Of a DNA stretch of 64,000 nucleotides, positions 26,393-56,330 are shown one piece after another. Source of the stretch: an uncultured archaeon (GTDB lineage Archaea > Thermoplasmatota > Thermoplasmata > Thermoplasmatales > Thermoplasmataceae); the NCBI GenBank assembly GCA_000965745.1, contig CP009479.1, positions 576,001 to 640,000 of the forward strand. Direction: 5' to 3'. The notes beneath the pieces were generated by a model. That model did no database searches. It was not told the origin of the DNA and saw only the letters and a list, made by a program, of their open reading frames with translations. Within the stretch, counting starts at the first letter, position 1. Each line of letters begins with the position of its first letter. The translations under genes and the position numbers were made by a program.

Positions 26393-26464
26393 GGGCCGGT
26401 AGATCAGCGGTAGATCGCCTGCTTTGCAAGCAGGAGGTCTCGGGTTCAAATCCCGACCGGTCCA
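26393..26464 (+). tRNA. tRNA-Ala(TGC)
   Basis: Cloverleaf: acceptor GGGCCGG/CCGGTCC with G3:U70, anticodon arm CCTGC-TT TGC AA-GCAGG, T-loop GGTTCAAATCC; CCA not encoded. Confidence 0.97.
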
Positions 26465-26513
26465 TTTAATCTATTAATCGAATACTTTTTATCTCGCCAC
26501 TCGTTATGTTCTC

Positions 26514-27803
26514 ATGACCATGCAGCCGAAGTATCAGGAACTGCTTCTTGATGATGATTTACGAAGATGGTACGAGAACCTCAGGGCAAAGTCAGTTCTC
26601 ACGGCAACAGTGGCATTGAGAAATCTGGGCCACTATTGCGAGCTTACAAACACGAATCCAAAAGAAATACTGGTCAAAGCAAAAGGCAACGAGAAAGATT
26701 TCCGTTATGAATTCACAGATTTTGTAAGGATGATGGAGAAGGAAGGCAAAGCAGGATCATACATAGCGAGATTCAAGAAGGTCATTCTCTCCTGGCTGAA
26801 GTTTAACGGTATCGGTTTGCAGTTAACCGTTAACATATCTGGGGAAAACGAAACACCGACGATAGTTAACGAAAGAGTGCCTAGCAAGGAAGAATTAGCC
26901 AGAATCCTCAGGAAAGCCACTTCGAGAGGGAGGGTTGCCGTTGCCATTATGGCATTCTCCGGTCTCAGGCCTGAGTCCTTAGGAGACTATGAGGGCACCG
27001 ATGGCTTAAGGCTTGGAGATATCAAGGACCTGAGGATATCGGAGGAAATCCAGTTCGATAAGACACCTGCAATGATTGTGGTCAAGAACAAGCTGAGCAA
27101 GGCAAGACACCAATATTTCTCTTTCATAGAAGAGGAAGGCGCCACTTATATCAAGGAATATCTGGAAGAACGTAGAAAGCAGGGGGAGGAGCTAACTTAT
27201 GAGTCTCCATTACTGCAATTCGATGTTCGCGGAGTGAAAAAGAACGATTTCCTCCGAACCACTCTCGTTACAAGAGATATACGAGAAGCGATAGAGAACT
27301 CAGGCCTGAAGATGCGCCCATATGTCCTGAGAGCATATTTCAGTACGGCTCTTGACATTGCAGAAGCCAAGGGCCTCATATCTCATCCCTGGAGGCAGTT
27401 CATAATGGGCCACAAAGGAGACATTGAGGCTAGATACAGCACCAACAAGCGCCTGCCTCCAGATGTCATAGAGGAAATGAGGGAGGCATACAGGAAGAGC
27501 ACCAAGTTCCTTGAGACCAGATACAGCGAACTTGAGGAGGACAAGGCCAGAATGTACCTGCAGCAGCAGTTGCTATCAGCAGTGGGCTACAAACCGGAAG
27601 AAATTGACAAGATGGATCTCACTAAGATAAGCAACGATGATTTCCAGAAGCTCCTCCGGGACAAGGTGGCAGGAGCCATGGCAAGCAACGGCTCGAAGCA
27701 GAGGCTCGTTCCAATGAACGAGATTGAGAAGCTCCTGAGCGAAGGGTACGAGTTCCAGGCAGTCCTGCCCAACGGAAAGGCAGTTATGAAATTACCTTTT
27801 TAG
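26514..27803 (+). CDS. Tyrosine recombinase/integrase
   Basis: FSGLR (Arg I), YVLR (HxxR variant), MGH, EARY (Tyr); 49 bp from the tRNA end. Confidence 0.92.
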   Translation: MTMQPKYQELLLDDDLRRWYENLRAKSVLTATVALRNLGHYCELTNTNPKEILVKAKGNEKDFRYEFTDFVRMMEKEGKAGSYIARFKKVILSWLKFNGIGLQLTVNISGENETPTIVNERVPSKEELARILRKATSRGRVAVAIMAFSGLRPESLGDYEGTDGLRLGDIKDLRISEEIQFDKTPAMIVVKNKLSKARHQYFSFIEEEGATYIKEYLEERRKQGEELTYESPLLQFDVRGVKKNDFLRTTLVTRDIREAIENSGLKMRPYVLRAYFSTALDIAEAKGLISHPWRQFIMGHKGDIEARYSTNKRLPPDVIEEMREAYRKSTKFLETRYSELEEDKARMYLQQQLLSAVGYKPEEIDKMDLTKISNDDFQKLLRDKVAGAMASNGSKQRLVPMNEIEKLLSEGYEFQAVLPNGKAVMKLPF

Positions 27804-27826
27804 AGCAATAAAGCATCCGATGATAA

Positions 27827-28375
27827 GTGGACCTTAACGACGCCCCGTATAAGTTCATTATTCCCAGTTGCCCTGGCTGCGAGATGGTTTCAAACCGGAT
27901 AAGGGAACAGCAGGCACCAGTGATGGTGAAAGACCTCTACGCATACTTCGAGAACGGGGAAAGAAGACATTCGCCCGAATACATGACCCATAAGGCAGTG
28001 AATACGCATCTCACCCATCTTAAGAGGTCCGGATACCTCAAACGGGCATACGATGAGGAGAAGAAAGGTGTTGTGCTATCAATCTACGAGGCAAAGGTCT
28101 ATCTCGACATGTATCGCAGGGGTATACATTTTAAGGATGAAGCCGAAAACACAGACTTTGAGGAGGATATGAAATTCATATCCAACAGCCTCAAACAATC
28201 GGACAAGATCATTTTTGACAAAGCGAGAAAATGCGTGTGCGGAAAAGTCTACAAACCAAAGATGGACGTGATAGAGCCCATCAACGCAGGCAAGCAGGTC
28301 ATTCTGTTATTCTCGTTCAAATGCCCTGACTGCGGCCATGAAAGGTCATTTTCACTAATAGTATATAAACCCTAA
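27827..28375 (+). CDS. Hypothetical Zn-binding/HTH-like protein
   Basis: CPGC, CVC and CPDC motifs; HLKRSGYLKR. Confidence 0.6.
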   Translation: MDLNDAPYKFIIPSCPGCEMVSNRIREQQAPVMVKDLYAYFENGERRHSPEYMTHKAVNTHLTHLKRSGYLKRAYDEEKKGVVLSIYEAKVYLDMYRRGIHFKDEAENTDFEEDMKFISNSLKQSDKIIFDKARKCVCGKVYKPKMDVIEPINAGKQVILLFSFKCPDCGHERSFSLIVYKP

Positions 28376-28407
28376 ACGATACAAGTATACTCCCTGCATA
28401 TACTTAT

Positions 28408-28602
28408 TTGATGTCTACCCAACAGGACGGTAAGATCGACTTGTCCAACCTGAAGAGAGATTTTGCAAGTCGTTTTCCGGATAGTCCGCTTACGCCTGTA
28501 CTTCTGTCGGAACCGGATACGCTTAGTTTCGGGGACATGTTGGCAAAAGCCGGTACATGGCTGGTTCTGCTGGGGAACGACAAAAGGAGTAAAGAAATAT
28601 GA
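28408..28602 (+). CDS. Small hypothetical protein
   Basis: TATATAAA upstream; ATGA overlap with the next gene. Confidence 0.6.
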   Translation: MMSTQQDGKIDLSNLKRDFASRFPDSPLTPVLLSEPDTLSFGDMLAKAGTWLVLLGNDKRSKEI

Positions 28603-28952
28603 GGAGAGTAAGAGTGAGACCGATTTCGGAAGAGGCAGAATATGTTGGCTCACAGCCTGAGATTGTGCAATACGAGATTGAAAATCCACAGAAGAAAGGC
28701 ACCATAGAGAGATTGCAGGAAACGGTTATCGATAACACGGTTAACCGTTACGAGCTTGAAGACCGGAGGCAAATAGCAGCCATACGAGAGTTTATGGAGC
28801 GGAATCCCGACATAAGCTACGTGGAATACGAATCAAATCCGGTTCTGAGGATGGACCTAGTGATAACGAGGCGCGGCCTGATCTTCAAGCGCGAAGAAGC
28901 ATCAATATCCGCAACGCTGACTCCGAACAGAAGATTCAGGGCACAGAGGTGA
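28599..28952 (+). CDS. Hypothetical protein
   Basis: 117-aa ORF in a tightly packed + strand run. Confidence 0.7.
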   Translation: MRRVRVRPISEEAEYVGSQPEIVQYEIENPQKKGTIERLQETVIDNTVNRYELEDRRQIAAIREFMERNPDISYVEYESNPVLRMDLVITRRGLIFKREEASISATLTPNRRFRAQR

Positions 28953-28955
28953 ATC

Positions 28956-29360
28956 ATGGACGAGGATGTTCTGACATTTGGATTCCTGATCACCTCATTA
29001 GCGGTGTTCATAACCGGTCTGGTATGGCAGGGCCTCTGGCCCTTCTTGTTTGCCATGACAATGTCAGGAAACTTGCTCTATGAGATAATAGGAGTGTCAG
29101 GCTTTTTTCTGACATTCATCGGAGCTCTTGTCCTGCTATATTGCGCGCTTATCCTTATCGTGTACGTCATATTTTTTGCAGTCATATTCGGCATACCTGC
29201 GTACCTGGTATATCTTGCCCTTGGCATTGAGAACAGCATAATTCTCGCTGTAATTGTTGGCGTTATCATCCTCATTTACCTGATAGAAACCCGCACAGTA
29301 AAGGTGGAACACTACACAGTAACGCTGAACCTTCACAAACGATATGTTGTAAAAAGGTAG
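28956..29360 (+). CDS. Small multi-pass membrane protein
   Basis: 3-4 hydrophobic helices; GAGGTGA RBS. Confidence 0.75.
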   Translation: MDEDVLTFGFLITSLAVFITGLVWQGLWPFLFAMTMSGNLLYEIIGVSGFFLTFIGALVLLYCALILIVYVIFFAVIFGIPAYLVYLALGIENSIILAVIVGVIILIYLIETRTVKVEHYTVTLNLHKRYVVKR

Positions 29361-29366
29361 CGGGAT

Positions 29367-31145
29367 ATGAATAAATATTTGGAAAGCCAGAATACGATTA
29401 TGAGGGAATATGGCTTTTCTGAGCTCATAAACGCAAGGCGCGTATTATCGAAGCCACTCATAGAGCTACCTCTTAGGAATGAGCAGAGGCTATTCTATGA
29501 CCTCTCAAGAAGGCTGAGAAGATTTGCAGGCCACACAGCCCTTGCATACAACATCATACCCGATGTGGAAAGAGGAAAGTTCAGGAGAGAAGAATGCTCG
29601 CCCAAAGCAGCATCCCTCAGAGACTATGTGCTTCATAAGGGAAACAGAAATGTATCAATTACCGGTGTGTCGGGTCAGGGGAAGAGCTATCTGACCACTC
29701 ACCTGATTTCGATTTTCAAGGACAAGGAGATAATCATATTCTCCTTCAAGCCCAATGACCATGAATTGCATCTTGGAATCCCAGTAGTGGATGCAAAGGA
29801 GTGCCTGCCCAATCCCTTCAAGGATGTGAACGCCTTCTCCGAGGCTTATATGACCGCCTTCTTCGGCGAGAAGACCTCATCCGGCATACAGCTTCAACAG
29901 ACTCCGGGATTCTTGCAGGAGATCGCCTCAGAGAGCAGCAGCTGGAAGGATTTTATGCTGAAACTGAGCGAGAGAAAGAGATCCGCATCCAAGAATCAGG
30001 TGGAGGCTCTGAACGCAATTGAGCAGAACGTAAAGAGCCTGATCATTGCCGATATGGGGAGCGTGGTCCTGGATAATGGAAGCATTGTCTTTGACTTCTC
30101 ATCTCTCCCGACTAAACAGGCCCAGAATTTCTATGCTGAACTGATGCTGAGGCAGATATACAGGGAAATGGAGGAGCGCAAGAGAAACGGCGTTCTTATC
30201 CTGATAGACGAAGCCCATCGACTGACTAAGTCCTACCATACAATCCTCGATGTCATGTCCAGGGAGATAAGGGACAAGGGAATGCTCTGGATAATCACAC
30301 AGAACCTCATTGACATATTGCCGGAAATGAGAGCGAATTTCGGTACAAAGTTCACCTTCAGGCTTGGTGATGCCGATCTTAACCTTCTATCGTATAACCC
30401 CCTTATGAGATATGCCGTTGAGATACTACAGCCAAGGCAGTTCATAGACATAGAGTTCCCAGAAGGCTCATCGTTCTCCCCCGTGTTCACATACGTTTCA
30501 AACGGTTTGGAGCACAAGGAAACACAAAAGGTCGCCGCGGCGGTATCTGAACCAAAGAGGGAAGTGGGAGTCGGAGGGAGAGGGGAGGAGATAGACTACA
30601 GGAGGGAGGCCCTGGAGATACTCAACGAGAGGATGTCCTATGCAACGGAAATGGGAAAGATAATCGCTGAGAAGTATGGAATTACGAAGGATCAGGCAAA
30701 GCTGAAGCTCAAATCCGTACTGGAAGAGCTGAAGAATAACAACGAAGTCGGCAGGGTGAAGTATCTCAGAAATGGAAAGCCAATAGTGATGTATTACTCA
30801 AAGAGCCCTAACCTCACCAACCTGCACACAGGAATGCAGAGCCAGGCTGTCGACATGCTCATGGACCTTGGTGTCAGCATCAACAGAATATCGACAACGG
30901 GCGAGAGAAACGCCTTCGACATAGAGACAGACTTCTTCATGGTGGAGATTGAAACAGGCCTCAAGCACAGTATGGAGGACTTGAAGGATAGGATAGAAAG
31001 CACGAACCTTAGAGTCATAGTAATCGTCCCCAATAGGGAGCTTATGGACAGGTATCACGATCTCGGAGAAAGAGTAGTCGTCACGACAATTGACTCCCTT
31101 GGAGAGGTGCTAACAGAGTCTGAGAAGGACCTCAATCCTGAATGA
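29367..31145 (+). CDS. HerA/FtsK/VirB4-superfamily ATPase with C-terminal wHTH and possible PD-(D/E)XK-like region
   Basis: Walker A GVSGQGKS, Walker B LILIDEAH, EIRDKG, ITQN; C-terminal FDI.....VEIETG. Confidence 0.82.
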   Translation: MNKYLESQNTIMREYGFSELINARRVLSKPLIELPLRNEQRLFYDLSRRLRRFAGHTALAYNIIPDVERGKFRREECSPKAASLRDYVLHKGNRNVSITGVSGQGKSYLTTHLISIFKDKEIIIFSFKPNDHELHLGIPVVDAKECLPNPFKDVNAFSEAYMTAFFGEKTSSGIQLQQTPGFLQEIASESSSWKDFMLKLSERKRSASKNQVEALNAIEQNVKSLIIADMGSVVLDNGSIVFDFSSLPTKQAQNFYAELMLRQIYREMEERKRNGVLILIDEAHRLTKSYHTILDVMSREIRDKGMLWIITQNLIDILPEMRANFGTKFTFRLGDADLNLLSYNPLMRYAVEILQPRQFIDIEFPEGSSFSPVFTYVSNGLEHKETQKVAAAVSEPKREVGVGGRGEEIDYRREALEILNERMSYATEMGKIIAEKYGITKDQAKLKLKSVLEELKNNNEVGRVKYLRNGKPIVMYYSKSPNLTNLHTGMQSQAVDMLMDLGVSINRISTTGERNAFDIETDFFMVEIETGLKHSMEDLKDRIESTNLRVIVIVPNRELMDRYHDLGERVVVTTIDSLGEVLTESEKDLNPE

Positions 31146-31352
31146 ACATTGATAAAAGGCGTATATAGAAACGTTTTTAATACCTACCAGAGCACTCTGA
31201 GTGGGTGTATAACAATGGAAGGCGGAGGTTACAGCGGTTGAAAATAAGAATTCCGAGTTGACGAATTGCCAGGAAGGCGGAGGCATATCAGGATAGAAAC
31301 ACCAGGCTTGATGTCAACGCTTGGCTACAATTTTTGCTTTATATTGCCAGCG

Positions 31353-33002
31353 CTAGTTAATCACCTCTGACAACTCTGTGCTCGATCTCTCTCCCCTAAA
31401 GCCTACATTTTCACTTTCCTTCTTATTGTCATATATCACTTTCTCAACCCATTCTTCCTTGTATTCTTCAACTAACAGTTTATACTGATTCGTGTAAGTG
31501 TAGTCGAACAGCCTGTAAGGTATAGTTCCAACGAGCACCTCTTCAATCTTGAGCGGTTTGATTTCGTAGCCGGAAAGATTCTCTTCCATTGTGTTAGCAA
31601 TTTCCCCAATTCCACCGTCGCGGCTAATTATGTTGTAGTTATATGCCGGCACAATGTAGAAAATACCGACAGGAGAGGCGATATCACCGATTAAGGTGTA
31701 CTTTGATGTCGGATTATCGGAGCCTCCAAGGATGTCTCTCAATAGACGATCTCTCTTTGCTCTGATTTCTTCCTGGTTAACCACTGTTGAGAAAAGGATA
31801 TCGGAATGCAGCGGCAGATCCTGAATTGCTGTAATGCGCTTTATTACACCTCTATCGTGTAGCCTGGTGTACGCGTAATCAGACAGACCGTTATCAAATC
31901 CGTATTTCTTATCTATCTCGGACAGGTTGATGCTTCCGTCGATGCACAATTCCTTCAGTACTGCCCATTCTCTCTTGAATATCTGGTCCTCGTCGGGCCT
32001 TTGCTGTCCTTTCTTGCGCTTCCAAACTCTCTCATCTAGTATTTCGAAGAACTTATCTCTGATTGGCATAAAACCATAGGTAGTGAAGAACGGAGCAATG
32101 TTCCAAACAGAATCGAACGAAGGAGTCAGTGCCTCTCTCAGCTTGTAAATGTCGCTTCTTATCTCGTCATCGTTTCTAGCCAGGATGTGCATTACAAGAT
32201 CTATATCTCCTTCCGTCGCAGCGGCAAACTGCACCATCGGTTGCTTTTCCAAGGTCTCTTTCATCTCGTCTCTATTTGGTCTGTGAGGATAGTCTTCCGT
32301 GAACTTTACAAACGCAATGTAGCTCAGGTATCCAAGCTTGTTTATGTCAAGTTCTGCGGTGTATCTCAGCCTGAACTTTTTATCGACATCGTTTAGAAGC
32401 TTTCGTGCATTCTTCATGCTTGTACCTGCAATCTCTGCGAAGTGTTTTGTCGTGATCCGCCCGTTCATGGAGAGTGCCATCAAGGCTTTTCTCTCTTTAT
32501 CAGAAGGAATCGGCAACTCAGGAAACCACTTTTCCCTGAGTCTTTCATACTTTCTCCCTTTGTATTGCGAAAGAAGCTTCTTCGCAAGGGCATATCCCGC
32601 TTCGTAGCACTCTGGATCGAAGTCTCCCACTCTTGAAACAATCTGTCCTATCGCTTCGTCTATATTCGCACCTCGATCAATCAGAACTTTCGCTGAATTT
32701 TCGTGCTCAAAGCACAAGGCCTCCGTGAGATACAATGTTCCATCATTCTCCTTGCCATTCGGGTCCATAGCGTAATGCGCAATCAGCCTGTCGACCGCCG
32801 CACTCTCATCATTCATTAAAGCATCTTCCAACAGATCTTTCTTGGATTTCCAGTCTTCCCCATAGTACGCATCCTTCGCCTCGTCCAGTTCATGGTCAAG
32901 ACTTGCAGTGTCCCTGAAGACCGCCTTTACAAGATCAAGAAGCTGGCACCCCTCAATCGGCTCATCGGGTTCAAAATGCCTTATTTTCCCCAAGCTCCGC
33001 AC
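31353..33002 (-). CDS. Large Lrp/AsnC-like protein (two HTH/RAM-like units) with ankyrin-like N-terminal repeat
   Basis: ALSMNGRITTKHFAEIAG HTH, LDINKLGY, TEGDIDL; second HTH ELCIDGSINLSEI; N-terminal DGTLYLTEA...AKVLIDRGANID. Confidence 0.65.
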   Translation of the reverse strand: MRSLGKIRHFEPDEPIEGCQLLDLVKAVFRDTASLDHELDEAKDAYYGEDWKSKKDLLEDALMNDESAAVDRLIAHYAMDPNGKENDGTLYLTEALCFEHENSAKVLIDRGANIDEAIGQIVSRVGDFDPECYEAGYALAKKLLSQYKGRKYERLREKWFPELPIPSDKERKALMALSMNGRITTKHFAEIAGTSMKNARKLLNDVDKKFRLRYTAELDINKLGYLSYIAFVKFTEDYPHRPNRDEMKETLEKQPMVQFAAATEGDIDLVMHILARNDDEIRSDIYKLREALTPSFDSVWNIAPFFTTYGFMPIRDKFFEILDERVWKRKKGQQRPDEDQIFKREWAVLKELCIDGSINLSEIDKKYGFDNGLSDYAYTRLHDRGVIKRITAIQDLPLHSDILFSTVVNQEEIRAKRDRLLRDILGGSDNPTSKYTLIGDIASPVGIFYIVPAYNYNIISRDGGIGEIANTMEENLSGYEIKPLKIEEVLVGTIPYRLFDYTYTNQYKLLVEEYKEEWVEKVIYDNKKESENVGFRGERSSTELSEVIN

Positions 33003-33066
33003 CCTTCTATTATAGCCCTGCCTTCCAAATATTTATAACGTGCTATTTTTTCATTCCCCGGACACT

Positions 33067-33102
33067 GGTTAACCGCTAACCGTTATTCCAAGTGGGTTAA
33101 CC
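33067..33102. promoter_or_regulatory. Candidate parS/operator repeats (GGTTAACC)
   Basis: GGTTAACC at 33067 and 33095 plus GCTAACC; the same palindrome recurs at 34164 right after the partner gene. Confidence 0.45.
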
Positions 33103-33134
33103 ATAAACTTATAACTCTTCGCTTACAAGCCTAA

Positions 33135-33890
33135 ATGATGATCATTTCAATCGCCAACCAGAAGGGAGGTTGCGGAAAGACGACGACCGCAGCGAACCTG
33201 GGAGCGTTGCTTGCGCAGAAGCACAAGGTTCTCCTGGTAGACGTCGATCCGCAGGGAAACCTGACCACACATTTTGGCATTAACAAAGCTGACCAGAAGC
33301 ATACGATATACGATGTGATGCTCAATGGCAGGATTGAGGAAGCAATCATTCGAAAGGACGGTGTGGACATCGTGCCCAGCACTATTGACCTTGCAGGCGC
33401 AGAGGTAGAGCTTTCAGGAAAAATAGGAAGAGAGTACATTCTAGACAACGAACTCAAGAGGATTGCTAGGAAATATGACTATGTTATCATAGATACGCCG
33501 CCCAGTCTGGGAATATTCACCATCAACTCGCTTGTTGCGTCAGATTATGTTCTGATACCAGTGCAGGCCGAGTTCTTCGCTTTAGAAGGATTGACACAAC
33601 TCATGAGAGTCGTAGAACTCGTGAACTCAAGGCTCTCAAGAAACCTGAAATTGCTTGGAATGCTCATAACGATGTTCAATTCCAGAACAAGATCGTCAAA
33701 GGAGATTCTTGAGGATGTCAGGAAACATTACTCGAAGAGCCTGCTTAAGACAGTTATACCCAGGAACGTGACCGTAACGGATTCCACCATGGCAGGTTCT
33801 CCTGTAGTGAGATATCGGAAAACCGCCCCCGCATCAAAGTCTTACGTTGCACTTGCAAAAGAAATTGAAAGAATGCTCAAGGTGAAATGA
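33135..33890 (+). CDS. parA: ParA/Soj family ATPase
   Basis: NQKGGCGKTT, DVDPQGN, IDTPP. Confidence 0.95.
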   Translation: MMIISIANQKGGCGKTTTAANLGALLAQKHKVLLVDVDPQGNLTTHFGINKADQKHTIYDVMLNGRIEEAIIRKDGVDIVPSTIDLAGAEVELSGKIGREYILDNELKRIARKYDYVIIDTPPSLGIFTINSLVASDYVLIPVQAEFFALEGLTQLMRVVELVNSRLSRNLKLLGMLITMFNSRTRSSKEILEDVRKHYSKSLLKTVIPRNVTVTDSTMAGSPVVRYRKTAPASKSYVALAKEIERMLKVK

Positions 33891-34162
33891 TGGCAGATAT
33901 CAAGAAGAGAGGTTTGGACAGCCTGATATCACAGAACTCACACTCTGATGCCGAGACGAATAGGCCAGAGGAGAGATTCATAAAGACGGTGGGCTTCAAA
34001 GTAACCGAGAAGCAGTACGAGACCTACAAAAGATACTCAAAGTACTTTGGTTCTGACGACCTTATTAAGAAATGGCGTTCTGATCTTGACAAGATAGAAC
34101 GGGAGAGGGGCAAGGACCTAGAAAGCGTGGAAACTGAAATCAGGAAACGGCTAACAAAGTAA
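33887..34162 (+). CDS. Putative small ParA partner (centromere-binding adaptor)
   Basis: Overlaps parA; N-terminal KKRGLDSLI resembles a ParA-stimulating peptide; KTVGFKVT suggests an RHH beta-strand. Confidence 0.65.
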   Translation: MMADIKKRGLDSLISQNSHSDAETNRPEERFIKTVGFKVTEKQYETYKRYSKYFGSDDLIKKWRSDLDKIERERGKDLESVETEIRKRLTK

Positions 34163-34205
34163 CGGTTAACCGAAAACCCCCTAAGTTCATAAAACTCAAA
34201 CTTGG

Positions 34206-35085: not shown

Positions 35086-35089
35086 TTAA

Positions 35090-47828: not shown

Positions 47829-47901
47829 TATCACTGATAGATATTTAAGATATCTCTGTTAACGGATAATTATCAGTGATACATTAATAAAGTATCACTG
47901 A
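47829..47901. promoter_or_regulatory. Inverted-repeat operator around the promoter of the type IV TA-like pair
   Basis: TATCACTGATA (47829), TATCAGTGATA (47871) and TATCACTGA (47893) around the TATA-like TTTAAGA. Confidence 0.7.
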
Positions 47902-47915
47902 ATACAGATACAAAA

Positions 47916-48947
47916 ATGGATGAAGATCTAGAACCAATTTATCAGTTTATACTTGAGAAACTCCGTATTTCACCTGATGCAAAAATAGACAGGTCGTATC
48001 CGATATCTATTGGAGAAAGAGAATTACTGATAGACTTAGCAATTAAGTCCAGAGGCACTTTGACGCTTGTTGAAATTAAGTCTAGAATAAATGAAGACAC
48101 TATATACAGAATATATGCTCTTTCGCACTTAATAAGCAAACAGTTGATGGGTAAGAAAGAGATAAGATTGGTTTGTGCTGGAAAATCACTGAAGTACAGC
48201 ACCCAGGAACTTGCCGCCAGGCTTGGTGTAGAAACCCTGCTCATCCCTCCAATATTGTATCAGTACTTGTCACCTATGGTAACTGCATCTAAGGTGAATG
48301 CTCCTTTCGAACACTTAAGAGCTAGTCCGTCAAAAATTACTTCCGAAAAGGCATGGAAAATTGTCTGTTCCCTACTGACTGATAAATCATCCAACATCCT
48401 TGCTATTTCTAAGAAAACCGGTGTTTCATATGGCTGGACAAACACTGTAATTCATAAACTTGAAGAATCTGGGATAGTAACGGTCAATTACAGCTTTAGA
48501 ATCAAAGACATAGATAAGCTTTTGAATTTGGTCTCGTGGGAAAGAGCCCTTGACGACCTGCTCTTGGAGACTGTAAACACAAATTTCAGCACTGCAACCC
48601 AGTGTATAAATGAAGTCGCGTTGAATCTAAACAGGCTCGGAATAGATTATGCTTTCACGGCCCATTCGTCTGCCGTTTCATATGGTTCTTCTATAATGAA
48701 GGAAGATACAGCATATATCTACCTCCCGAACCCATCCGACAAAGAAGTTATTAGGTCCTTTTCTGAAAGAGAAGCAGTTGGAATTCGCCTGAAGGTATAC
48801 GTACCCGAAAGAGATATCATGAAATCTTCCACCATGTTTAATGGCGTTCGGATTGTTGACGTGTGCCAGAACATACTGGACCTTGCAGGATTAGGTATGG
48901 ATGGACGGATTGCCGCAAAGGATCTGGTGAATAAGTGTGGTAAATGA
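47916..48947 (+). CDS. AbiEi-like antitoxin/regulator (nuclease-like N-terminus + wHTH)
   Basis: IDLAI.....LVEIKS; wHTH ISKKTGVSYGW....IHKLEESG; YAFT; C-terminal V.IVD..Q.ILDL. Confidence 0.65.
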   Translation: MDEDLEPIYQFILEKLRISPDAKIDRSYPISIGERELLIDLAIKSRGTLTLVEIKSRINEDTIYRIYALSHLISKQLMGKKEIRLVCAGKSLKYSTQELAARLGVETLLIPPILYQYLSPMVTASKVNAPFEHLRASPSKITSEKAWKIVCSLLTDKSSNILAISKKTGVSYGWTNTVIHKLEESGIVTVNYSFRIKDIDKLLNLVSWERALDDLLLETVNTNFSTATQCINEVALNLNRLGIDYAFTAHSSAVSYGSSIMKEDTAYIYLPNPSDKEVIRSFSEREAVGIRLKVYVPERDIMKSSTMFNGVRIVDVCQNILDLAGLGMDGRIAAKDLVNKCGK

Positions 48948-49683
48948 AGAAGGTGGAGAGACCACTTTGGCCCGGGATTCATTCGAAGAGCTCAGGTACA
49001 TTTTCGACTGGAGCTCCGCTAACAGAAATTATAGGCCAGGTGATATCGTTCTCATAGGCGGATGGGCAGTCCACTCATTTAATCCTTGGAAATATTCACT
49101 CGATATCGATTTGATCGCAACTGGTCGTTTCAAGGATTCATTAAAAAGACATCTATACTCGACCCGGGATTACAGTAGAGAAAGGGATTCTGCAGGAAAT
49201 ACCTTGTTTCTAAAAAGTATAGACTCTGGAGATATTTATCTTGACTTTCTACCGAAAAAAGATCAATTCCACGGAACGGGCAAATTTCTCAATTTGATGA
49301 AAATAGAATACGAGACTGTTCCCAAAAATATTTCCCATTCCATTGAGCCTGAGTTCCAAGTCATAGTCCCAGAGATCTCAATGCTCCTCTTGCTAAAGTT
49401 AAAAGCGGCATGGGACAGATACTATGATTTATCGCTTGAAACTGCTCTGGACAAGGATCATTTGAACGAGAAGTTTACCAAGGATTGTGGCGACATCATT
49501 GCTTTACTTCAGAGTGATGCATTTCAGTTCGCCAGATTTGATTGGCTGTCTTCAATCATATCCAGATTTGATTTCTTGCGGACTTTCCTGGGGCAGGGAA
49601 TTATAGCGGATAATTCGGCTTTTGACCGTATTTCTCATAAGGAAGGCAAAGCGCTAATCAAAAGGTTATTGTCTCTTATTTGA
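48937..49683 (+). CDS. Nucleotidyltransferase (AbiEii/type IV TA toxin-like)
   Basis: VLIGGWAV, SLDIDL, LLLLKL.A, KD..DI; overlaps its partner. Confidence 0.75.
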   Translation: MVNEEGGETTLARDSFEELRYIFDWSSANRNYRPGDIVLIGGWAVHSFNPWKYSLDIDLIATGRFKDSLKRHLYSTRDYSRERDSAGNTLFLKSIDSGDIYLDFLPKKDQFHGTGKFLNLMKIEYETVPKNISHSIEPEFQVIVPEISMLLLLKLKAAWDRYYDLSLETALDKDHLNEKFTKDCGDIIALLQSDAFQFARFDWLSSIISRFDFLRTFLGQGIIADNSAFDRISHKEGKALIKRLLSLI

Positions 49684-49730
49684 TGAAACTCTAAATGGAA
49701 TGGTTGCAAGAGTTATCATAGAGACCTAAA

Positions 49731-49770
49731 AGTATTCGCTTAAAACATTAAACAAATCCCGACCGGTCCA
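49731..49770 (+). repeat. att-like site 3
   Basis: AGTATTCGCTTAAAACATTAA-ACAAATCCCGACCGGTCCA; 37/40 identical to site 2. Confidence 0.9.
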
Positions 49771-50260
49771 TTTCATGTGCATAATTAGTATGCTTGTGAT
49801 AAATAGGATTATCATGGAGGTTAAGGGTCTTCAGTTTCCTTGTTTGTTTCATTTTGTCCAGCCTTTCTAACAGAATTGCGCGTCTCCCTGGTCCACAGGT
49901 AAACAAGTACGAACACAGTTATTGAGGGCACTATTAAGCCAATAATCCCTGTTTAATTGATCATAATTCAGGTCGAATTCATGCCCGCATTTTTGGCACT
50001 TCAAATGATGCTCCTAGCCCATGCTAATTCCTCTGGTGGATCATATGAAATAAGAATATATATCTCAACAGAAGATCCATAGGCTCCCTACACCATTTTA
50101 AGATTATTCTCCTTTCTATGGGGTACTGACCTCTTCAAGGTACCATCGGGTTTATGCCATGGAAATAGACCGTTATCTTGAGGATTCAGCAATTTTGGAG
50201 TGGGGTGAGCATAAGCTTCTATATAAAAAAACTTTATACTATCGTTTACCATAGATAACT

Positions 50261-50482
50261 GTGACAATTACAACAATACAGATAAAGGAAGAGACCAAGA
50301 AGACATTGCAGTCCATGAAATTACATCCAAGAGAGACTTACGAGGAAGTGATAGAAAGGATGCTGGAGGACCTTCGCGAACTTAATGAAGAAACCATAGC
50401 AGATATCGAGGAAGCTAGAAAGGAAATTGAATCCGGTAAATTCGTCACGCATGAGCAATTGAAAAAGGACCTTGGCCTCTGA
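50261..50482 (+). CDS. Type II antitoxin (RHH, RelB-like)
   Basis: TTIQIKEETK..L...K....ETYEEVI; IEEARKEIESGK; overlaps the toxin. Confidence 0.85.
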   Translation: MTITTIQIKEETKKTLQSMKLHPRETYEEVIERMLEDLRELNEETIADIEEARKEIESGKFVTHEQLKKDLGL

Positions 50483-50736
50483 TGGAATACGAAATAATCT
50501 GGTCAATCAAGGCAGCAGGTCAGATGAGAAGTCTTGATAGGTCCGTTGCCAAAAGAATTCATGAAAAAGTGGACCAGCTTTATCAAAACCCGGAAAGATT
50601 TGTTGAGAAACTCGTCAGGTATCCTTATTACAGGCTTAGGGTGGGAGATTATCGTGTGATTCTTGACATCAAACATGAATCTGTTAGAATATTGATCCTA
50701 AAGGTAGGACCCAGAAGTAAAATATACGAGCGATAG
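50482..50736 (+). CDS. relE: RelE/ParE family toxin
   Basis: YRLRVGDYRVI...VGPRSKIY. Confidence 0.92.
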   Translation: MEYEIIWSIKAAGQMRSLDRSVAKRIHEKVDQLYQNPERFVEKLVRYPYYRLRVGDYRVILDIKHESVRILILKVGPRSKIYER

Positions 50737-50748
50737 TAGAATCAGAAT

Positions 50749-50788
50749 GGTATTCCCTTAAAACATTAATCAAATCCTGACCGGTCCA
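50749..50788 (+). repeat. att-like site 4
   Basis: GGTATTCCCTTAAAACATTAA-TCAAATCCTGACCGGTCCA; 37/40 identical to site 2. Confidence 0.9.
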
Positions 50789-50889
50789 TAATCCTATGAG
50801 CCCGAGTCTCAAGCATATGTTGACATAAATCCACAGATTAAGTTGAAAAGATTTAAAATATCCTCTTTTTCTAATCCCACTAGAGTTGG

Positions 50890-51360
50890 ATGGACCATCT
50901 GAATAAGATTATAGAGGAAGCTTGGAATCAACGGGACACCCCTGAAGTGTTTCTAAAGAAATTCCAGGAAGTATTCGAAGATTACAGCGAAAATGCTGTG
51001 TACTTGTTCGAATATGCAAGTGCTTTGGATTTCCTGGGGAAGGAGACTGAGGCAATTCCTCTATATCAAAGGGCCATAAAGATAGGGCTTTCAGGAAAAA
51101 TGAAAACTCAGGCTGAAATACAGTTGGGAAGTTCACTCAGTGTCACGGGCGAAAATGAAAGTGCCATATCTATCCTGAGCAGAGTACAGAAGGAAACGGG
51201 GGATCCTGCCGCCCTGTCATTCCTGTGCATTGCTCTGATCAGATCTGGAGAAACTAAGAAGTCGCTCAAGACTGCTCTCAATTTTATTCTGTCAAGCAAT
51301 CAGGGTCTATTGCCTGAATATGAGAGACCCCTTTCACAGTACCTTGATGAAATCGGTTGA
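50890..51360 (+). CDS. Tetratricopeptide repeat protein
   Basis: FEYASALDFLGKETEAIPLYQRA, IQLGSSL...G. Confidence 0.85.
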   Translation: MDHLNKIIEEAWNQRDTPEVFLKKFQEVFEDYSENAVYLFEYASALDFLGKETEAIPLYQRAIKIGLSGKMKTQAEIQLGSSLSVTGENESAISILSRVQKETGDPAALSFLCIALIRSGETKKSLKTALNFILSSNQGLLPEYERPLSQYLDEIG

Positions 51361-51447
51361 TTTCTGATTCCGTCCGCCCATTCTGGCATATTGTAGCCAT
51401 TCATTTAGAGAAGTGCCAACAAATGACTTGTAAGACCGACGCAAAAA

Positions 51448-52350
51448 TCATCCTCTACCCTTTACTTCGCGATAAAGGTTTATGGATGCCGGGCTTGTTT
51501 TCCACATTTTGTTCAAGCGTATTCCTGGAAGTTCTCCCTGTTTAATTCTCAGTGCCAGGTATTTCGACGAGTAATCTGTACCGGAGGCTTCTCTTGCCTC
51601 TTTCAGGGTCAATAGGTTATCCTCTTCGGAACCCACCTTGTCGAGAACAAAGACAAGTGATCTTGCCATATTTGTTTCCAGAAACTCTGTTAATTTGCTC
51701 ACACCTTTACCATGAGCAGCCTCAAGCGCATCCAGATAAGAACCTCTGTCGTTAGGGAGAATGTGAATCAACGGCCAGTTGTGATTGAGGAAGTGTATAT
51801 TCAGCAGCAGTCTTCCGACTCTTCCATTTCCATCTGAAAAGGGATGGATTGACTCGAAACCGATGTGCATCTCTGCAGCCTGTGCGAAGATATCTTCACG
51901 CCCCATATCCATTGCCGCATAGTGCTTTTCCCATTCCCGAAGCAGTGAAATGAGCTTTTCAACTCTTGGGGGTGAATATCTTGAACCTGATATTCTGACA
52001 TTGACTTTCCTCCACTGACCTGCGTCAATAAGTATCCCATAAAAAATATGTCGGTGCAAATCCAATGCACTTTTCATGCTAACTTCACATATTCTTCCAC
52101 TTACAATTTCTGCCAAAGCGGATCGATGCTGGATAGTTTCAAGCAGATCTCTCACTGGGCGATCAGGAATAGTCATTCCACTTTCAATTACTCTGGTCAC
52201 TTCATCCAGGGTTAGAGTGTTACCCTCTATGGCATTAGTTCCCCAGGTATTGAGTATGAACGATTCTTGAAGGGTCTTCTCTGGCATATTGCGTAATGAG
52301 CCTCGATCCAACATCCTTTCCCTGAGTCTATTTAGTATGTGTCTATCCAT
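51448..52350 (-). CDS. Fic family protein with C-terminal HTH
   Basis: TNAIEGNTL; HPFSDGNGRVGR Fic motif. Confidence 0.93.
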   Translation of the reverse strand: MDRHILNRLRERMLDRGSLRNMPEKTLQESFILNTWGTNAIEGNTLTLDEVTRVIESGMTIPDRPVRDLLETIQHRSALAEIVSGRICEVSMKSALDLHRHIFYGILIDAGQWRKVNVRISGSRYSPPRVEKLISLLREWEKHYAAMDMGREDIFAQAAEMHIGFESIHPFSDGNGRVGRLLLNIHFLNHNWPLIHILPNDRGSYLDALEAAHGKGVSKLTEFLETNMARSLVFVLDKVGSEEDNLLTLKEAREASGTDYSSKYLALRIKQGELPGIRLNKMWKTSPASINLYREVKGRG

Positions 52351-52437
52351 TATCGATACAAATATACATATTAGATATTTAAACATATATGGAAAACTCA
52401 AATAATCTTATTAACTCCATATTAACCATCATTTTAA

Positions 52438-52707
52438 CAAAATTGAGCGGGAAATCCCCTTCCGAAAGGGAGGGAATGAAAGTGAACCTATCTGTATCAC
52501 AAACAGATGTAATTCCTGTTCGCTGGCAGACAGAAGTGAAAGTGGTCGGATAGCATATTGCTCCATGCATGCCTGCGTCCGTAAAGTCAGGTGGCTGAGC
52601 ATGGAGGACATAGTACCTTCGGGCCAAGGGGAATTCAAGCCTGTGGAGATTCCGCCAGCAACCTTTGAAGCAGGAAGCTCCCTGTGAAAGCTGGGAGAGG
52701 AGGTCAC
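52438..52707 (+). mobile_element. Non-autonomous IS200/IS605-family derivative (270 bp) with tnpB 3'-end/omegaRNA remnant
   Basis: Preceded by TTTAA; left hairpin CCCTTCC-GAAA-GGGAGGG; tnpB-like tail VPSGQGEFKPVE; right hairpin CTCCC..GGGAG ending GGAGGTCAC. Confidence 0.75.
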
Positions 52708-52720: not shown

Positions 52721-53227
52721 TCAATCCAATGAAATCCTTTCCATCTCGTTTCCATTTACTGTTAGAAGCCCCTTAACCTCACAGGCTTTCGACAGTGTGT
52801 TGGTAACATAGCAGTCGGAGGCAGAAACTGATGCCAATTCCCTGATTTTCTCGACGTTTTCAGGCGATCTGATGTCAACGAAATATACTATCTCAGAGAA
52901 AGATCTTGGCCTGCTTACGCTGAATTTTCCCTCAACCCCTATGGTGAGGTGATCGATTACCAGATCTTTGGAGCCCGCGTGTTCTCCGTAGTGTATCATC
53001 TGGCACATGGCAAGGCTTGATACAAAATAAGCGAGAGGACTGGGCCCATTTTCATCTGATACCCAGGAAAATTCCTGATTGCCAGGACTGGCTCTGGAAA
53101 ATAGATTGTTACCCTTGCTCACTGTGACACTGACATTTGAAAAAACATCTCCTTTCTTATCAAATTTTGAGAATTTTTCCATCCTTTCCTTCATTCTCTG
53201 TTTGAAGTCTCCGTCAAACTGTACCAT
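52721..53227 (-). CDS. OsmC/Ohr family protein
   Basis: SDE.GPSP..YF..SLAMC...CYVTNTL. Confidence 0.8.
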   Translation of the reverse strand: MVQFDGDFKQRMKERMEKFSKFDKKGDVFSNVSVTVSKGNNLFSRASPGNQEFSWVSDENGPSPLAYFVSSLAMCQMIHYGEHAGSKDLVIDHLTIGVEGKFSVSRPRSFSEIVYFVDIRSPENVEKIRELASVSASDCYVTNTLSKACEVKGLLTVNGNEMERISLD

Positions 53228-53262
53228 GCCACTGAAATTTGGATTGGTTCTTAATTCCTCAC

Positions 53263-53277
53263 CGTCAACCGTTGACG
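53263..53277. promoter_or_regulatory. Palindromic operator CGTCAAC-C-GTTGACG upstream of the osmC-like gene
   Basis: Perfect 7-1-7 palindrome; related copies at 54055-54063 and 54168-54179. Confidence 0.65.
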
Positions 53278-53296
53278 CAAGCCGGCCTTTTTGGTC

Positions 53297-53983
53297 TCAA
53301 ACAGTAACAATCCTGCCAAGGGCTGTTATCTCTACTTCCATTCTTCCCCTGGCCTTTCTGTTTACGGACACAAGCCCAAGATCGATGAGACCCTGAGAAT
53401 CGTCAGTGCCATTCATGTGCCTGCTGATAAGGGATTTTTCAAGCCCCGTTAATTCCGAGAGCTGCTCAAGGCTATCCACCTTGCCTTTCATCCTTGACAG
53501 TGCACTTAATATAGAAAGCTTGGTCTCAGACAATATCTTCTGGTATCCCAGCTTCATGATGGGCAGCATATGCACACCCGATTGATCCACCCAGAAAGCT
53601 CTTATGCCAAAAATAAAAGCAGAGGAAATGGCGGTGCACGACAGGAGTTTCCCTCCTTCGGTAACATTCATGAAAATGTCCTCATACTCCTGGCTATGCT
53701 CCTTATACACTGATTTTACGGCGTCGAGGACCTCATTGAGTTCCCCCGATTCTATCATCACCTCATCAACCTGGGCCATAAGGGCTCCTGAGACCTGCTC
53801 CATAAAACCATTGAACGGAACGTCATTCACGGGGATGCTTTTCCCATGGACCCGTTCGTGAATTATTACAATCTTGTCCAGAGGAAGATGCCTTATTCCG
53901 GATCTTATCCCTGTATAAGACTGCCCGTCTGTATATATGGCGATCTGAAGGGTCTTTTTCTGTAAGCCGGCCTCATCTGCCAT
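53297..53983 (-). CDS. CARF-like + winged-HTH transcriptional regulator (Csa3-like architecture)
   Basis: DKIVII, NVTEGGK (CARF motif II pattern), C-terminal LSELTGLEKSLISRH...ITALGR. Confidence 0.75.
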   Translation of the reverse strand: MADEAGLQKKTLQIAIYTDGQSYTGIRSGIRHLPLDKIVIIHERVHGKSIPVNDVPFNGFMEQVSGALMAQVDEVMIESGELNEVLDAVKSVYKEHSQEYEDIFMNVTEGGKLLSCTAISSAFIFGIRAFWVDQSGVHMLPIMKLGYQKILSETKLSILSALSRMKGKVDSLEQLSELTGLEKSLISRHMNGTDDSQGLIDLGLVSVNRKARGRMEVEITALGRIVTV

Positions 53984-54223
53984 GGTTCTTAGGAAGCAAT
54001 CAGTGTTTATAGACATGTGTTCGCATCAAGGGAGGTAATACTAACTTTCCCCAGCAACCGTTGGTGGGTAATTTATTCTATCTTAGGTATGCATATCCAG
54101 CGTGTATTGACAAGAGAAGTCTTCCGGCTTAACACTTATTTTGAATCCCGTTACGACTTCATATTAGCAACCGTTGACGGAATTGGCTTATATATACTTC
54201 CAAAATCTGAAAATCAGATAAAA

Positions 54224-54820
54224 ATGACAGAAAACAGATGTGATGTGTGCGGTATGTCCTTTGGCTCGAAAGAGAGCCTGATGGAACATGCAAAAATGCA
54301 CATGGGATCGGGAAATACAAGAACGGGACCAGGGAAGCTGACAACAAGGGGTGTAATAACCTCATCCGTGGTTGGAGGAATTCTTGGTGGAATAGTAATG
54401 CTCATAGTCCTAATGGTTGGTGCAATGGGAATGGGGCTTTCGGCCACAACTTTTGCAATGGTTATGGGCATGGGCCTTGGCGCTTCAATGGGAGCGGCGA
54501 CGGCTGTTGGAGTAGTCAGCCATTTTGTTGTTGCAATAGTGGCAGGAGGCATATTTGGGGCAATCGTTTCATTTGTGAAACCTCTTGGCCTTAAAACAGC
54601 AGGTAGAGCACCTATTCTGGGTTTAGTGTTTGGCATAGTAATGTTCCTGGTGTTCTTCCTTCCAATGGCGATGGCGGTATTTGCACCTGTAATGATGCAC
54701 CTGATGGATCCAAAGGCTGCAATGATGCTACCAGATGTACTGGTGACAGGATTCATAGGTCACATCCTGTTCGGTCTCGTACTTGGAACAGTGGCATTTT
54801 ACTTTGGAAGAAAATTTTAA
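54224..54820 (+). CDS. C2H2 zinc finger fused to a Met-rich four-TM membrane domain
   Basis: CDVC...H...H; hydrophobic helices with many Met and two TM His; TTATATA upstream. Confidence 0.75.
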   Translation: MTENRCDVCGMSFGSKESLMEHAKMHMGSGNTRTGPGKLTTRGVITSSVVGGILGGIVMLIVLMVGAMGMGLSATTFAMVMGMGLGASMGAATAVGVVSHFVVAIVAGGIFGAIVSFVKPLGLKTAGRAPILGLVFGIVMFLVFFLPMAMAVFAPVMMHLMDPKAAMMLPDVLVTGFIGHILFGLVLGTVAFYFGRKF

Positions 54821-54872
54821 ATTATCAAACATAATTTTTTAATATTTAAAATAAAGATCATGAGTGATTGAA

Positions 54873-56225
54873 ATGACAGCAAAATACGACTTAATAATCA
54901 TAGGATCAGGATCAGCTTCCACTACCACAGCGTTCAGGGCACTGAAAGCAGGAAAGAAAATTGCAGTGATAGACCAGAAGCCAATCGGAGGAACATGCGC
55001 CCTCAGGGGATGTGATCCCAAAAAGGTCATGGTAGGTGTTACCGATTCCCTGGAGCATGCAAAACGACTCCAGGGATACGGCATATCTGATTTTAAGGGA
55101 GAACTCAACTGGGACGAGCTCATGAAGTTCAAGAGCTCCTTTACCGAGCCAATGTCCAAGAAAATAGAGGAAAGCCTCGTTAAAAGTGGTATTGATGTGC
55201 ACAGAGGGAGGGCGAAATTTATCAAGCCTGATACGCTCGAAGTTGAAGGAAAACCACTGGAAGCCGAAAAATTCCTGATATCCTCAGGAGTGAAGGCAGC
55301 AACTCTCAATTTTCCTGGTTCAGAGTACCTGATAGATAATGAGGAGTTTCTGAACCTTCCCTCACTGCCGAAGAACCTGGTGTTCATCGGCGGGGGATAC
55401 ATTTCGGTTGAATTCGCCAGTATAGCAAGAAAAGCTGGCTCGGAGGCAACTATAATACAGCACTCAGACAGGATACTGGTCAACTTTGACAAAGAAGTTG
55501 CTGAAGTCCTTTCCAAGCAGTTGAAAGATTCGGGTATAAGGACTCTGACAAGCAGCTCAGTGAAGGAGATACAGAAGTCAGGGGGCAAATATGAAATACG
55601 CCTTGCAAAGGACGGAAAGGAGCATTCCATTACAGCAGATCTTGTTGTTCATGGTGCGGGCAGAGAATTTGATTCAGACATGGGACTTGAAGTTGGACAG
55701 GTGAAATGGTCCAGAAAAGGAGTGGCAGTAAATGAATATCTCCAGAGTGTGTCGAATCCCAGGGTTTATGCTGCTGGAGATTCCGCTGATACTTCAGGAC
55801 CAAAGCTGACACCGATTGCGGTTATGGAAGGCAACATAGCAGCAGAGAACATCATAAACGGAAATTCCGTGAAGGCAAATTACACAGGGATTCCTACGTC
55901 CGTCTTCTCCTCTCCGCCATTGGCAATGGTTGGAATCACTGAGGAGGGTGCTTCCAGGAAAGGTATTAAGACAACTGTGAAAAAAGGGGAGATGACATCC
56001 TGGTATAATTCCAGGAGGAGAATGGTGCCAAGTTCATTCTATAAGATCATCATGAATGAGGACTCCAGCAAAATTCTGGGTGCACACATTCTTGGTGAAA
56101 ATTCAGAGGAAACCATTAATATCTTCGCCCTTGCAATAAGGCTTGGCATCGATGTGAAAACACTACTCTCGATACCTTACACCTATCCATCGGATACGAA
56201 CGACATTAGATACATGATCGGGTAA
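54873..56225 (+). CDS. Class I pyridine nucleotide-disulfide oxidoreductase (glutathione reductase-like)
   Basis: IGSGS, GGTCALRGCDPKK redox disulfide, IGGGYI, AAGD. Confidence 0.9.
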   Translation: MTAKYDLIIIGSGSASTTTAFRALKAGKKIAVIDQKPIGGTCALRGCDPKKVMVGVTDSLEHAKRLQGYGISDFKGELNWDELMKFKSSFTEPMSKKIEESLVKSGIDVHRGRAKFIKPDTLEVEGKPLEAEKFLISSGVKAATLNFPGSEYLIDNEEFLNLPSLPKNLVFIGGGYISVEFASIARKAGSEATIIQHSDRILVNFDKEVAEVLSKQLKDSGIRTLTSSSVKEIQKSGGKYEIRLAKDGKEHSITADLVVHGAGREFDSDMGLEVGQVKWSRKGVAVNEYLQSVSNPRVYAAGDSADTSGPKLTPIAVMEGNIAAENIINGNSVKANYTGIPTSVFSSPPLAMVGITEEGASRKGIKTTVKKGEMTSWYNSRRRMVPSSFYKIIMNEDSSKILGAHILGENSEETINIFALAIRLGIDVKTLLSIPYTYPSDTNDIRYMIG

Positions 56226-56290
56226 ATCCTGCATTCAATATCTATTGCCGAACAACTCCATTTTTTTTGTATTGCGGGAAGTGTGTATTT

Positions 56291-56330
56291 GATAATAGAT
56301 TAAAATTTTGATCAAATCCCGACCGCCTCT
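56291..56330 (+). repeat. att-like site 5 (degenerate)
   Basis: GATAATAGATTAAAATTTTGA-TCAAATCCCGACCGCCTCT; 30/40 identical to site 2, first 14 core bases exact. Confidence 0.75.

Follow-up and report, generated by a model that had tools for sequence, protein, structure and literature searches.

The array behind tRNA-Ala(UGC) in the 64,000-nucleotide stretch of DNA analysed here (the window) is best read as a push/pop (last-in-first-out) stack of gene cassettes, which would be run by the tRNA-Ala integrase of plasmid-like integrative elements; the probability of this reading is put at about 0.65. The earlier note had described mobile, reordering cassettes under one integrase family, and this part of its reading was borne out, whereas the proposed excision in trans and the analogy with attC were not. 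The features concerned are, in window coordinates:

26393..26464, + strand: tRNA-Ala(UGC), the integration target; the core is its last 19 nt (26446-26464)
26465..26485, + strand: P' arm, an inverted copy of the 21-bp arm (16/20 match to the arm)
26514..27803, + strand: tyrosine integrase, 429 aa (best model XerA-like, E 1e-9, below the cut-off)
27827..45547, no strand: plasmid-like element body, its backbone common to a second island, with a VirB4/HerA-like ATPase (29367-31145), ParA (33135-33890), a serine resolvase (35090-35695), an Orc1/Cdc6-like protein (35929-37041), a type IIG RM-like gene (37043-40717) and a PLD-SNF2 helicase (42365-45547)
45833..46463, no strand: conserved structured block, apparently non-coding, near the right end of the element (fold z -4.4)
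46812..47754, + strand: right-end cargo, a TIR-domain gene and a 152-aa ORF
47766..47805, + strand: unit 2, P arm plus core without P'; attR of the 21.3 kb element
47806..49730, + strand: body of cassette 2 (family F1, same ends in other genera), with an AbiEi-like regulator (47916-48947) and an AbiEii-like nucleotidyltransferase (48937-49683)
49731..49770, + strand: unit 3
49771..50748, + strand: body of cassette 3, with an antitoxin (50261-50482) and a ParE/RelE toxin (50482-50736)
50749..50788, + strand: unit 4
50789..52431, no strand: cassette with TPR (50890-51360, +) and Fic (51448-52401, -) genes
52432..52707, no strand: repeated element of about 280 bp, present in at least 10 genomic places
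52721..56225, no strand: OsmC, CARF-HTH regulator, DUF6789 protein and pyridine nucleotide-disulphide reductase
56291..56330, + strand: unit 5, decayed, which closes the array at its far end

The 19-nt tRNA end recurs at 47787 without mismatch and at 49752 and 50770 with one mismatch each (chance expectation 0.01), and the 21-bp arms are located at 47766, 49731 and 50749 (chance expectation 0.02). The identities to site 2 (37/40, 37/40 and 30/40 for the remaining units) and the core-to-core spacings of 21341, 1965, 1018 and 5542 bp were reproduced as first claimed. Of the core at site 5, only 15 of 19 positions match, but a profile score of 18 bits supports a genuine unit; no unrelated + strand site of the 2.2 Mb genome scores above -5, and site 5 directly precedes the gene that follows the same tRNA in relatives. 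A chance origin of the repeats was rejected on the basis of the two expectations, the profile scores and reversed-pattern controls, which gave 0.

Directly after the tRNA lies the inverted arm copy (P'), so that tRNA and P' form attL of the element and the internal units, which lack P', are of the attR type. By sequence, attP is composed of the P arm, the 19-bp core and the inverted P' arm, and the integration products are tRNA-P' on the left and P-core on the right. The 21-bp arm belongs to the attachment site of a tRNA-Ala-targeting tyrosine integrase, in which it forms the element-side arm (P). P' also follows the tRNA at the other loci with the integrase, wherever this occurs; it is absent at window sites 2-4 and follows about 6 of 292 internal units (about 2%), with two exceptions behind tRNAs.

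On the evidence of its genes and ends, module 1 is a tRNA-targeting, plasmid-like integrative element: a tyrosine integrase with catalytic residues adjoins the target, the tRNA 3' end is duplicated and element arms are present at attL and attR. As claimed before, the integrase is confined to this module in the window. Its residues R152, K196, Y270-x-x-R273, H300 and Y308 are invariant in an alignment of 8 homologues, and homologues carry integrase/XerD annotations; a PDB sequence search returned only XerA (E 0.87), and a single-sequence structure prediction gave a pLDDT of 38. The element body also encodes HNH, IrrE/HTH and DUF4411 proteins. No relaxase was identified, which bears on the route of cell-to-cell transfer. 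About 30 related elements keep the structured block close to their right end, and we infer that it is an origin of replication or transfer. In sequencing run X8, modules 2-4 were covered and the element hardly, with no contig joining across, so that this observation carries no evidential weight. In two runs of one study, contig depth was 26-30 for the element and 89-124 for the cassettes and downstream chromosome, only a hint of element excision, as depth is not a share of cells.

When arm plus core was searched for across relatives, the unit was found in 67 of 103 genomes of the family, in arrays of up to 11 units; a second array lies behind tRNA-Ala(CGC) of the same genome, and cultured carriers are Cuniculiplasma divulgatum (two 8-unit arrays) and Acidiplasma aeolicum VT. 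An exact-pattern search of viral contigs gave no match to the unit. The 192 complete modules (median 1.6 kb) fall into 120 families, and the 29 families with several members usually show different neighbours. None of 167 unit-to-unit modules matches the integrase, which is also absent from 20 of 25 tRNA-adjacent modules. That the small modules are discrete, integrase-free cassettes was thus upheld, their location and order differing between genomes, and the arm common to the units is explained by one integrase family. Six other genera also have module 2 of the window, with near-exact ends and different neighbours, and five of these copies lie directly downstream of the tRNA; its start coincides exactly with a unit in 7 loci and with the end of the tRNA in 5. 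An element end of 2.7-4.2 kb that includes a decayed internal unit and cassette F13 is shared at 98-99.96% identity by three genomes from two families, and its next neighbour differs in each genome. Confinement of the modules to large elements in fixed order, the outcome that would have contradicted the earlier note, was not what these comparisons gave. The predicted decay away from the tRNA was seen as a tendency: site quality tends to fall in 25 of 39 arrays, and the first unit exceeds the last in 26 of 39 (p=0.053), a borderline result from arrays that are not mutually independent.

Decay of distal units would also be expected if the arrays were passive relics, that is, full-size islands decayed to their right ends and reordered by homologous recombination or slippage at the 40-bp repeats without the integrase acting on internal units. 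Some integrase-free modules do retain the conserved right-end block or P' (L060, L067, L091), and the arginase junction described below, with its microhomology, fits such an origin. Random decay, however, predicts remnants of P' or integrase after many units, against the 2% with P' given above. The same 0.7-2 kb cassettes with the same ends occur across genera at 80-100% identity, also directly behind the tRNA, and the unit is kept at >90% per position amid 151-166 unrelated flanks, both of which make purely passive relics quite improbable. A part of this alternative is nevertheless retained: cassettes appear to be trimmed from larger units and carried in cis by distally excising elements.

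Arm variants follow the left flank and not the right (0.84, 0.60 and 0.66 versus 0.44, 0.33 and 0.49 for positions 1, 8 and 22). Since they travel with the left flank only, the exchange is placed in the core. The symmetry of attP indicates a crossover at unit positions 28-35 and the arginase junction one at 35-41; a crossover in the arm palindrome or right of the core was ruled out by the allele tracking together with flank identity from position 41. These data make it highly improbable that a host Xer recombinase moves the cassettes at a dif-like arm palindrome, as in pdif modules. An 11-6-11 imperfect palindrome does make up the first 29 bases of the unit, and the genome encodes other tyrosine recombinases, but the position-22 alleles, right of the palindrome centre, track the left flank and so do not place the crossover at that centre, this half-site recurs beside the cognate integrase gene and beside related integrases at tRNA-Arg and tRNA-Leu, and the array units are all co-oriented and all bear the tRNA end.

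Cassettes appear to arise by trimming of larger units at chance GGTCCA matches, as suggested by a single case in clearly coding DNA; other core-like matches could be eroded units. In this case (G001), the cassette start corresponds to a point within an intact arginase gene, which the junction cuts in mid-frame. The junction directly follows a core-end match of 8/9, compared with 6/9 in the intact copy, and shows a microhomology of 6-7 bp.

In the proposed stack, the integrase would require just P-core on the right partner, so that any downstream unit would be usable as attR. Excision at the nearest unit would remove the element and leave the cassettes directly behind the tRNA, and excision at a farther unit would take cassettes along (cis-mobilisation). 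Such a composite would insert at tRNA-Ala of another cell, ahead of the resident cassettes, and repeated push and pop would generate new orders. The standard reactions attP x attB and attL x attR suffice to explain the shuffling without trans action. A cassette would be born when a deletion joins the core end to a chance GGTCCA-like match to the right, with loss of P', the integrase and everything between; this deletion may stem from recombination at a secondary site or from repair, by microhomology, of a break made by the integrase. Decay of internal units would fuse cassettes into larger modules or element ends, and toxin-antitoxin cargo probably aids cassette persistence. Decayed core alleles are rarely common to sites sharing a right flank (16/328 versus a background of about 3%), as reshuffling by way of the tRNA would predict.

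The same scarcity argues against a true integron analogue, in which the integrase recombines unit with unit and frees integrase-free P-core circles that reinsert in trans at the tRNA or attL, independently of element movement. Cassettes that are small, have exact ends and occur in nearly any order would suit this model, as would those lying between tRNA and integrase element at some loci (L019), the duplication of one cassette end inside one array (G013) and an imperfect 28-bp palindrome of arm and part of the T-loop that could bind an integrase dimer. Yet contigs of four runs, from which rare variants are dropped, contain no circle or exact-skip joint, and no empty junction has both flanks near-identical, the right flanks of the seven candidates being just 70-85% alike; free circles and excision in trans, as suggested earlier, thus found no support. 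Joints that seemed to go back were rejected as circles of window modules, since they correspond to homologous cassettes at other places and contain intervening letters or unknown gaps. Free cassette circles would yield the same orders as push and pop, which reaches all observed states, and the integron analogue is considered unlikely. It is likewise doubtful, if somewhat easier to entertain, that the integrase is a gene-capture enzyme that joins P-core to P-core or tRNA without P', makes circles in trans and takes in new cassettes at six-to-nine-base pseudo-cores; if true, Thermoplasmatales would share a community-wide cassette pool under an integron analogue evolved independently of IntI/attC.

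Integrons, including archaeal ones (bioRxiv 10.1101/2022.02.06.479319), resemble the array in having small cassettes that each close with a recombination site, in variable order, in being rich in toxin-antitoxin and defence genes and in having the newest cassettes near the insertion point. The platform here is a tRNA gene at which the integrase comes and goes, without IntI, attC fold or attI. No integron-integrase-specific NCBIfam model matched the integrase at E<=1, the four unit strands folded gave no stable hairpin (z -0.4 to +1.5), and there was no Rfam match besides the tRNA. The last genes in the window do stop 11, 47, 12 and 65 bp ahead of the arms, but their + orientation is no rule: by crude ORF calls, the last gene is on the + strand in 59 of 106 cassette families and the first in 52 of 106, with 209 + and 156 - ORFs and a median leader of 172 bp. 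The absence of gene polarity, like that of a hairpin, leaves the attC analogy unsupported, and ORFs on both strands behind such leaders contradict promoterless, co-oriented genes of the integron type. As IntI, attC and such genes all fail, the array is not an integron. With the same cassettes in other orders in related species it works like one, yet its building blocks are ordinary tRNA-type integration sites.

The closest known systems are the ssrA islands of Dehalococcoides and CIME accretion. The former are arranged in tandem downstream of a single RNA gene, and a 20-bp direct repeat preceded by a conserved 15-bp motif closes each of them; 15 of the 31 have no integration module, and cis-mobilisation was proposed for these (McMurdie et al. 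2011, PMC3146451). They use a serine integrase and tmRNA, whereas the archaeal array uses a tyrosine integrase and tRNA-Ala, with cassettes of mostly 0.7-4 kb that cross genera with exact ends and carry toxin-antitoxin/defence cargo. CIMEs are integrase-less elements that are stacked by successive integration of ICEs/IMEs and co-transferred with an adjacent element (PMC5704250). The unit-to-unit modules without integrase match and the annotated window cargo agree with the lack of integrase and transfer genes in CIMEs, and co-transfer of this type is indicated by comparison only, in the element end with F13 that is near-identical across two families. CIMEs by definition keep attL and attR, whereas about 98% of the junctions here lack the attL-side arm and keep the attR-type unit, and the arrays reach the 11 units mentioned. 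In Prochlorococcus tycheposon islands, newer elements displace older ones from the tRNA and partial tRNAs are left along the island (bioRxiv 10.1101/2020.12.28.424599); these are tRNA fragments of about 40 nt and degenerate remnants, whereas the core here is short, the non-tRNA arm beside it is conserved and the cassettes are reusable. SNJ2-type archaeal integrases are alike in being intact, non-split tyrosine integrases with a core at the tRNA 3' end and conserved P/P' arms, and the parts of that report consulted describe no cassette arrays (PMC5861418). In the literature on Thermoplasmatales islands, searched mostly outside subscription papers, no account of these arrays was found.

For the variable defence islands of Thermoplasmatales, the stack offers a specific mechanism, in which genera share through a single tRNA a pool that numbers at least 120 types of module and is rich in PIN, Fic, AbiE-like, RM and ATPase genes. 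The origin and movement of integrase-less modules in tRNA/tmRNA arrays become testable in this system, which offers a site of just 40 bp, an intact integrase, a birth junction open to reconstruction and hosts in culture. Searches with the unit also locate exact cassette boundaries, and hence candidate defence genes, in acidophilic archaea.

In the window itself, cassette 3 has a right end common to many loci and a left part of 447 bp that is specific to this copy. Module 4, with the gene content given earlier, is a fusion of the TPR-Fic cassette, a repeated IS-end element and the OsmC-to-reductase block. In other genomes, TPR-Fic (F27) is a separate cassette of 1.8-2.0 kb with its own unit, the expected place of which is occupied here by the repeat of about 280 bp. 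Homologues of the OsmC-to-reductase block lie mostly outside arrays, and one has a unit at the same place.

The repeats claimed in the earlier note (the tRNA, the core copies and the arms) are all present, far beyond chance expectation. Each unit of 40 bp consists of a 21-bp arm (P) in front of a 19-bp core, which is a copy of the tRNA-Ala 3' end:

26393-26464, tRNA-Ala(UGC), followed by P', a 21-bp inverted copy of the arm
47766-47805, unit 2, core at 47787
49731-49770, unit 3, core at 49752
50749-50788, unit 4, core at 50770
56291-56330, unit 5, decayed (core 15/19, unit 30/40)

Unit 5 scores well over background on the unit profile and lies directly ahead of an HhH-GPD gene, which follows tRNA-Ala(UGC) in relatives. 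The host genome is a single contig of 2.23 Mb, and both the named close homologues of the integrase and the named genomes with an exact unit belong to the Thermoplasmatales. Since P' is an inverted arm copy, the attP of the circular element is symmetric (60 bp: P, core and P'), with the tRNA end as attL and unit 2 as attR. Units 3 to 5 are further attR-type sites, and the sequence beyond their cores is unrelated. In some units of other arrays (locus L027 at 8122, locus L077 at 5450 and the array of genome G013), the central spacer of the arm is inverted and the palindrome is more perfect, which looks like quasi-palindrome template switching.

The gene behind P' encodes an intact tyrosine integrase in which R152, K196, Y-x-x-R273, H300 and Y308 are invariant. 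Module 1, the integrase-bearing stretch between the tRNA and unit 2, is a plasmid-like element that also specifies a VirB4/HerA-like ATPase, ParA, a resolvase, an Orc1/Cdc6-like protein and RM/helicase cargo. A sister element with a 95 % identical integrase is located at tRNA-Ala(CGC) of the same genome (G000:C1:390292-410633; loci L001 and L002). Behind it lie two cassettes of its own (711 and 2042 bp); its units are at 407841, 408552 and 410594, and the first two have a rare arm variant in common. A similar P' also accompanies more distantly related integrases at tRNA-Arg and tRNA-Leu; the arm motif therefore belongs to the integrase family. About 30 related elements share with module 1 a conserved, strongly folding and apparently non-coding block close to their right ends (45833-46463 in the window), and a few modules without an integrase also contain it; it is a candidate origin of replication or transfer. 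At the right end of the element (46812-47754), a TIR-domain gene and an overlapping 152-aa ORF, with a weak ThsB-like match, possibly form a defence pair.

The unit was present in 67 of the 103 genomes of the family and in 17 of its 20 genera, with zero control matches; cultured carriers include C. divulgatum and A. aeolicum VT. In the fetched loci, 45 genomes had at least two units and arrays reached 11 co-oriented units. The 192 complete modules have a median length of 1.6 kb and were grouped into 120 families; the neighbours of the 29 multi-member families generally differ on both sides. The modules are discrete cassettes. Module 2 is an AbiEi/AbiEii-like pair, an assignment made by feature similarity only. 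Its full-length counterparts come from six other genera and one metagenome, and six of the seven align to within 1-4 bp of the left boundary. A family-wide search showed that its closer homologues begin exactly at a unit (seven loci) or at the tRNA end (five loci). Of 24 loci with the RelBE portion of module 3, 13 have a unit within 4 bp of its end; the sequence to the left of it varies. In other genomes, the TPR-Fic genes of module 4 form a cassette of their own, and in the window a repeated element of about 280 bp takes the place of its unit. The OsmC-to-reductase block of this module occurs mostly outside arrays, one genome having a unit at the matching position. Among 147 cargo proteins sampled, 16 were PIN and five Fic proteins; others belonged to ATPase, RM and transporter families.

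The repeated element (52432-52707) has at least 10 copies in the genome and further copies in relatives; its hairpin ends are reminiscent of non-autonomous IS200/IS605 derivatives. Loci L060 and L067 have, behind tRNA-Ala, modules (711 and 5576 bp) that lack an integrase and retain both P' and a unit; these are classical two-armed mini-elements. In locus L138 (genome G002, same genus), tRNA-Ala(UGC) is followed directly by a truncated copy of module 2, which has lost its unit, and then by the native gene, an arrangement that represents the end stage of decay.

In genome G001, a unit abuts sequence that in four other loci sits inside a longer cassette. The corresponding point in those loci directly follows a 6-8/9 match to the core end, with no trace of an arm. 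As the junction point lies in frame within an arginase gene, which is intact in one locus, this match is a pseudo-core that arose by chance rather than a unit that has decayed. At several other left ends, non-unit homologues are preceded by core-end matches of 6-9/9 (at least 6 being expected in 0.7 %), some of which may be eroded units. New cassettes would thus be born by precise trimming to the core, the join being made either by the integrase or by microhomology repair. Such precision would explain the absence of P', which is found behind only about 2 % of internal units.

An integrase match was obtained for 0 of the 167 unit-to-unit modules, and of the 25 modules that immediately follow the tRNA, 20 lack the integrase. 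Arm polymorphisms are co-inherited with the left flank, which places strand exchange inside the core, as in a reaction of attL with attR. Three genomes of two families share an element end with a decayed internal unit and a cassette of family F13; the copies are 98-99.96 % identical over 2.7-4.2 kb, and each has a different follower. In C. divulgatum, a related end has kept its unit intact and has yet another follower. These ends suggest that elements excise at distal units, taking cassettes along. Site quality tends to drop with distance from the tRNA, a borderline trend. Two runs from a single study gave the contigs of the element roughly one quarter to one third of the depth of the cassettes and adjacent chromosome, whereas the depths were equal in another study; the contrast hints that the element leaves while the cassettes stay. 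Taken together, the absence of P' and integrase, the arm alleles, the F13-bearing ends, the site decay and the depth make it most likely that the array is a push/pop stack operated by standard reactions. A search for empty junctions yielded none whose two flanks were both near-identical, and the contigs searched contained neither a cassette circle joint nor an exact internal skip.

The earlier note had interpreted the array as integron-like, with one integrase capturing and stacking cassettes in trans. That interpretation is supported in part: its discrete, reused cassettes stand, and the outcome is like that of an integron. Integron membership was rejected on IntI, attC and gene layout, cassette genes here lying on both strands with long leaders. 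That the array is a true, IntI-independent integron analogue, in which the integrase would act in trans on single cassettes, is rather unlikely. Its architecture matches CIME accretion (PMC5704250) and the ssrA islands of Dehalococcoides, which have a motif and a direct repeat and of which 15 of 31 are without an integration module (PMC3146451); it also resembles tycheposon islands (bioRxiv 10.1101/2020.12.28.424599). The differences concern the host domain, the class of enzyme, the lost attL arm, the small size and the reuse across genera. The accessible portions of the papers on these organisms' islands contain no description of the arrays.

Two other genomes (G018:C11 ~8746-8825 and ~13438-13484; G013:C1 ~908132-908170) have, between their 40-bp units, longer copies (about 45 bp) of the 3' half of tRNA-Ala, pointing to a second type of element that also enters this tRNA and pushes its stack. 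In the host genome (G000:C1), tRNA-Thr(CGT) near 1091350, tRNA-Leu(CAG) near 2068864 and tRNA-Val(UAC) near 2149057 have copies of their 3' parts 2.4-6.4 kb downstream, which suggests that small modules using different types of site are integrated there as well.
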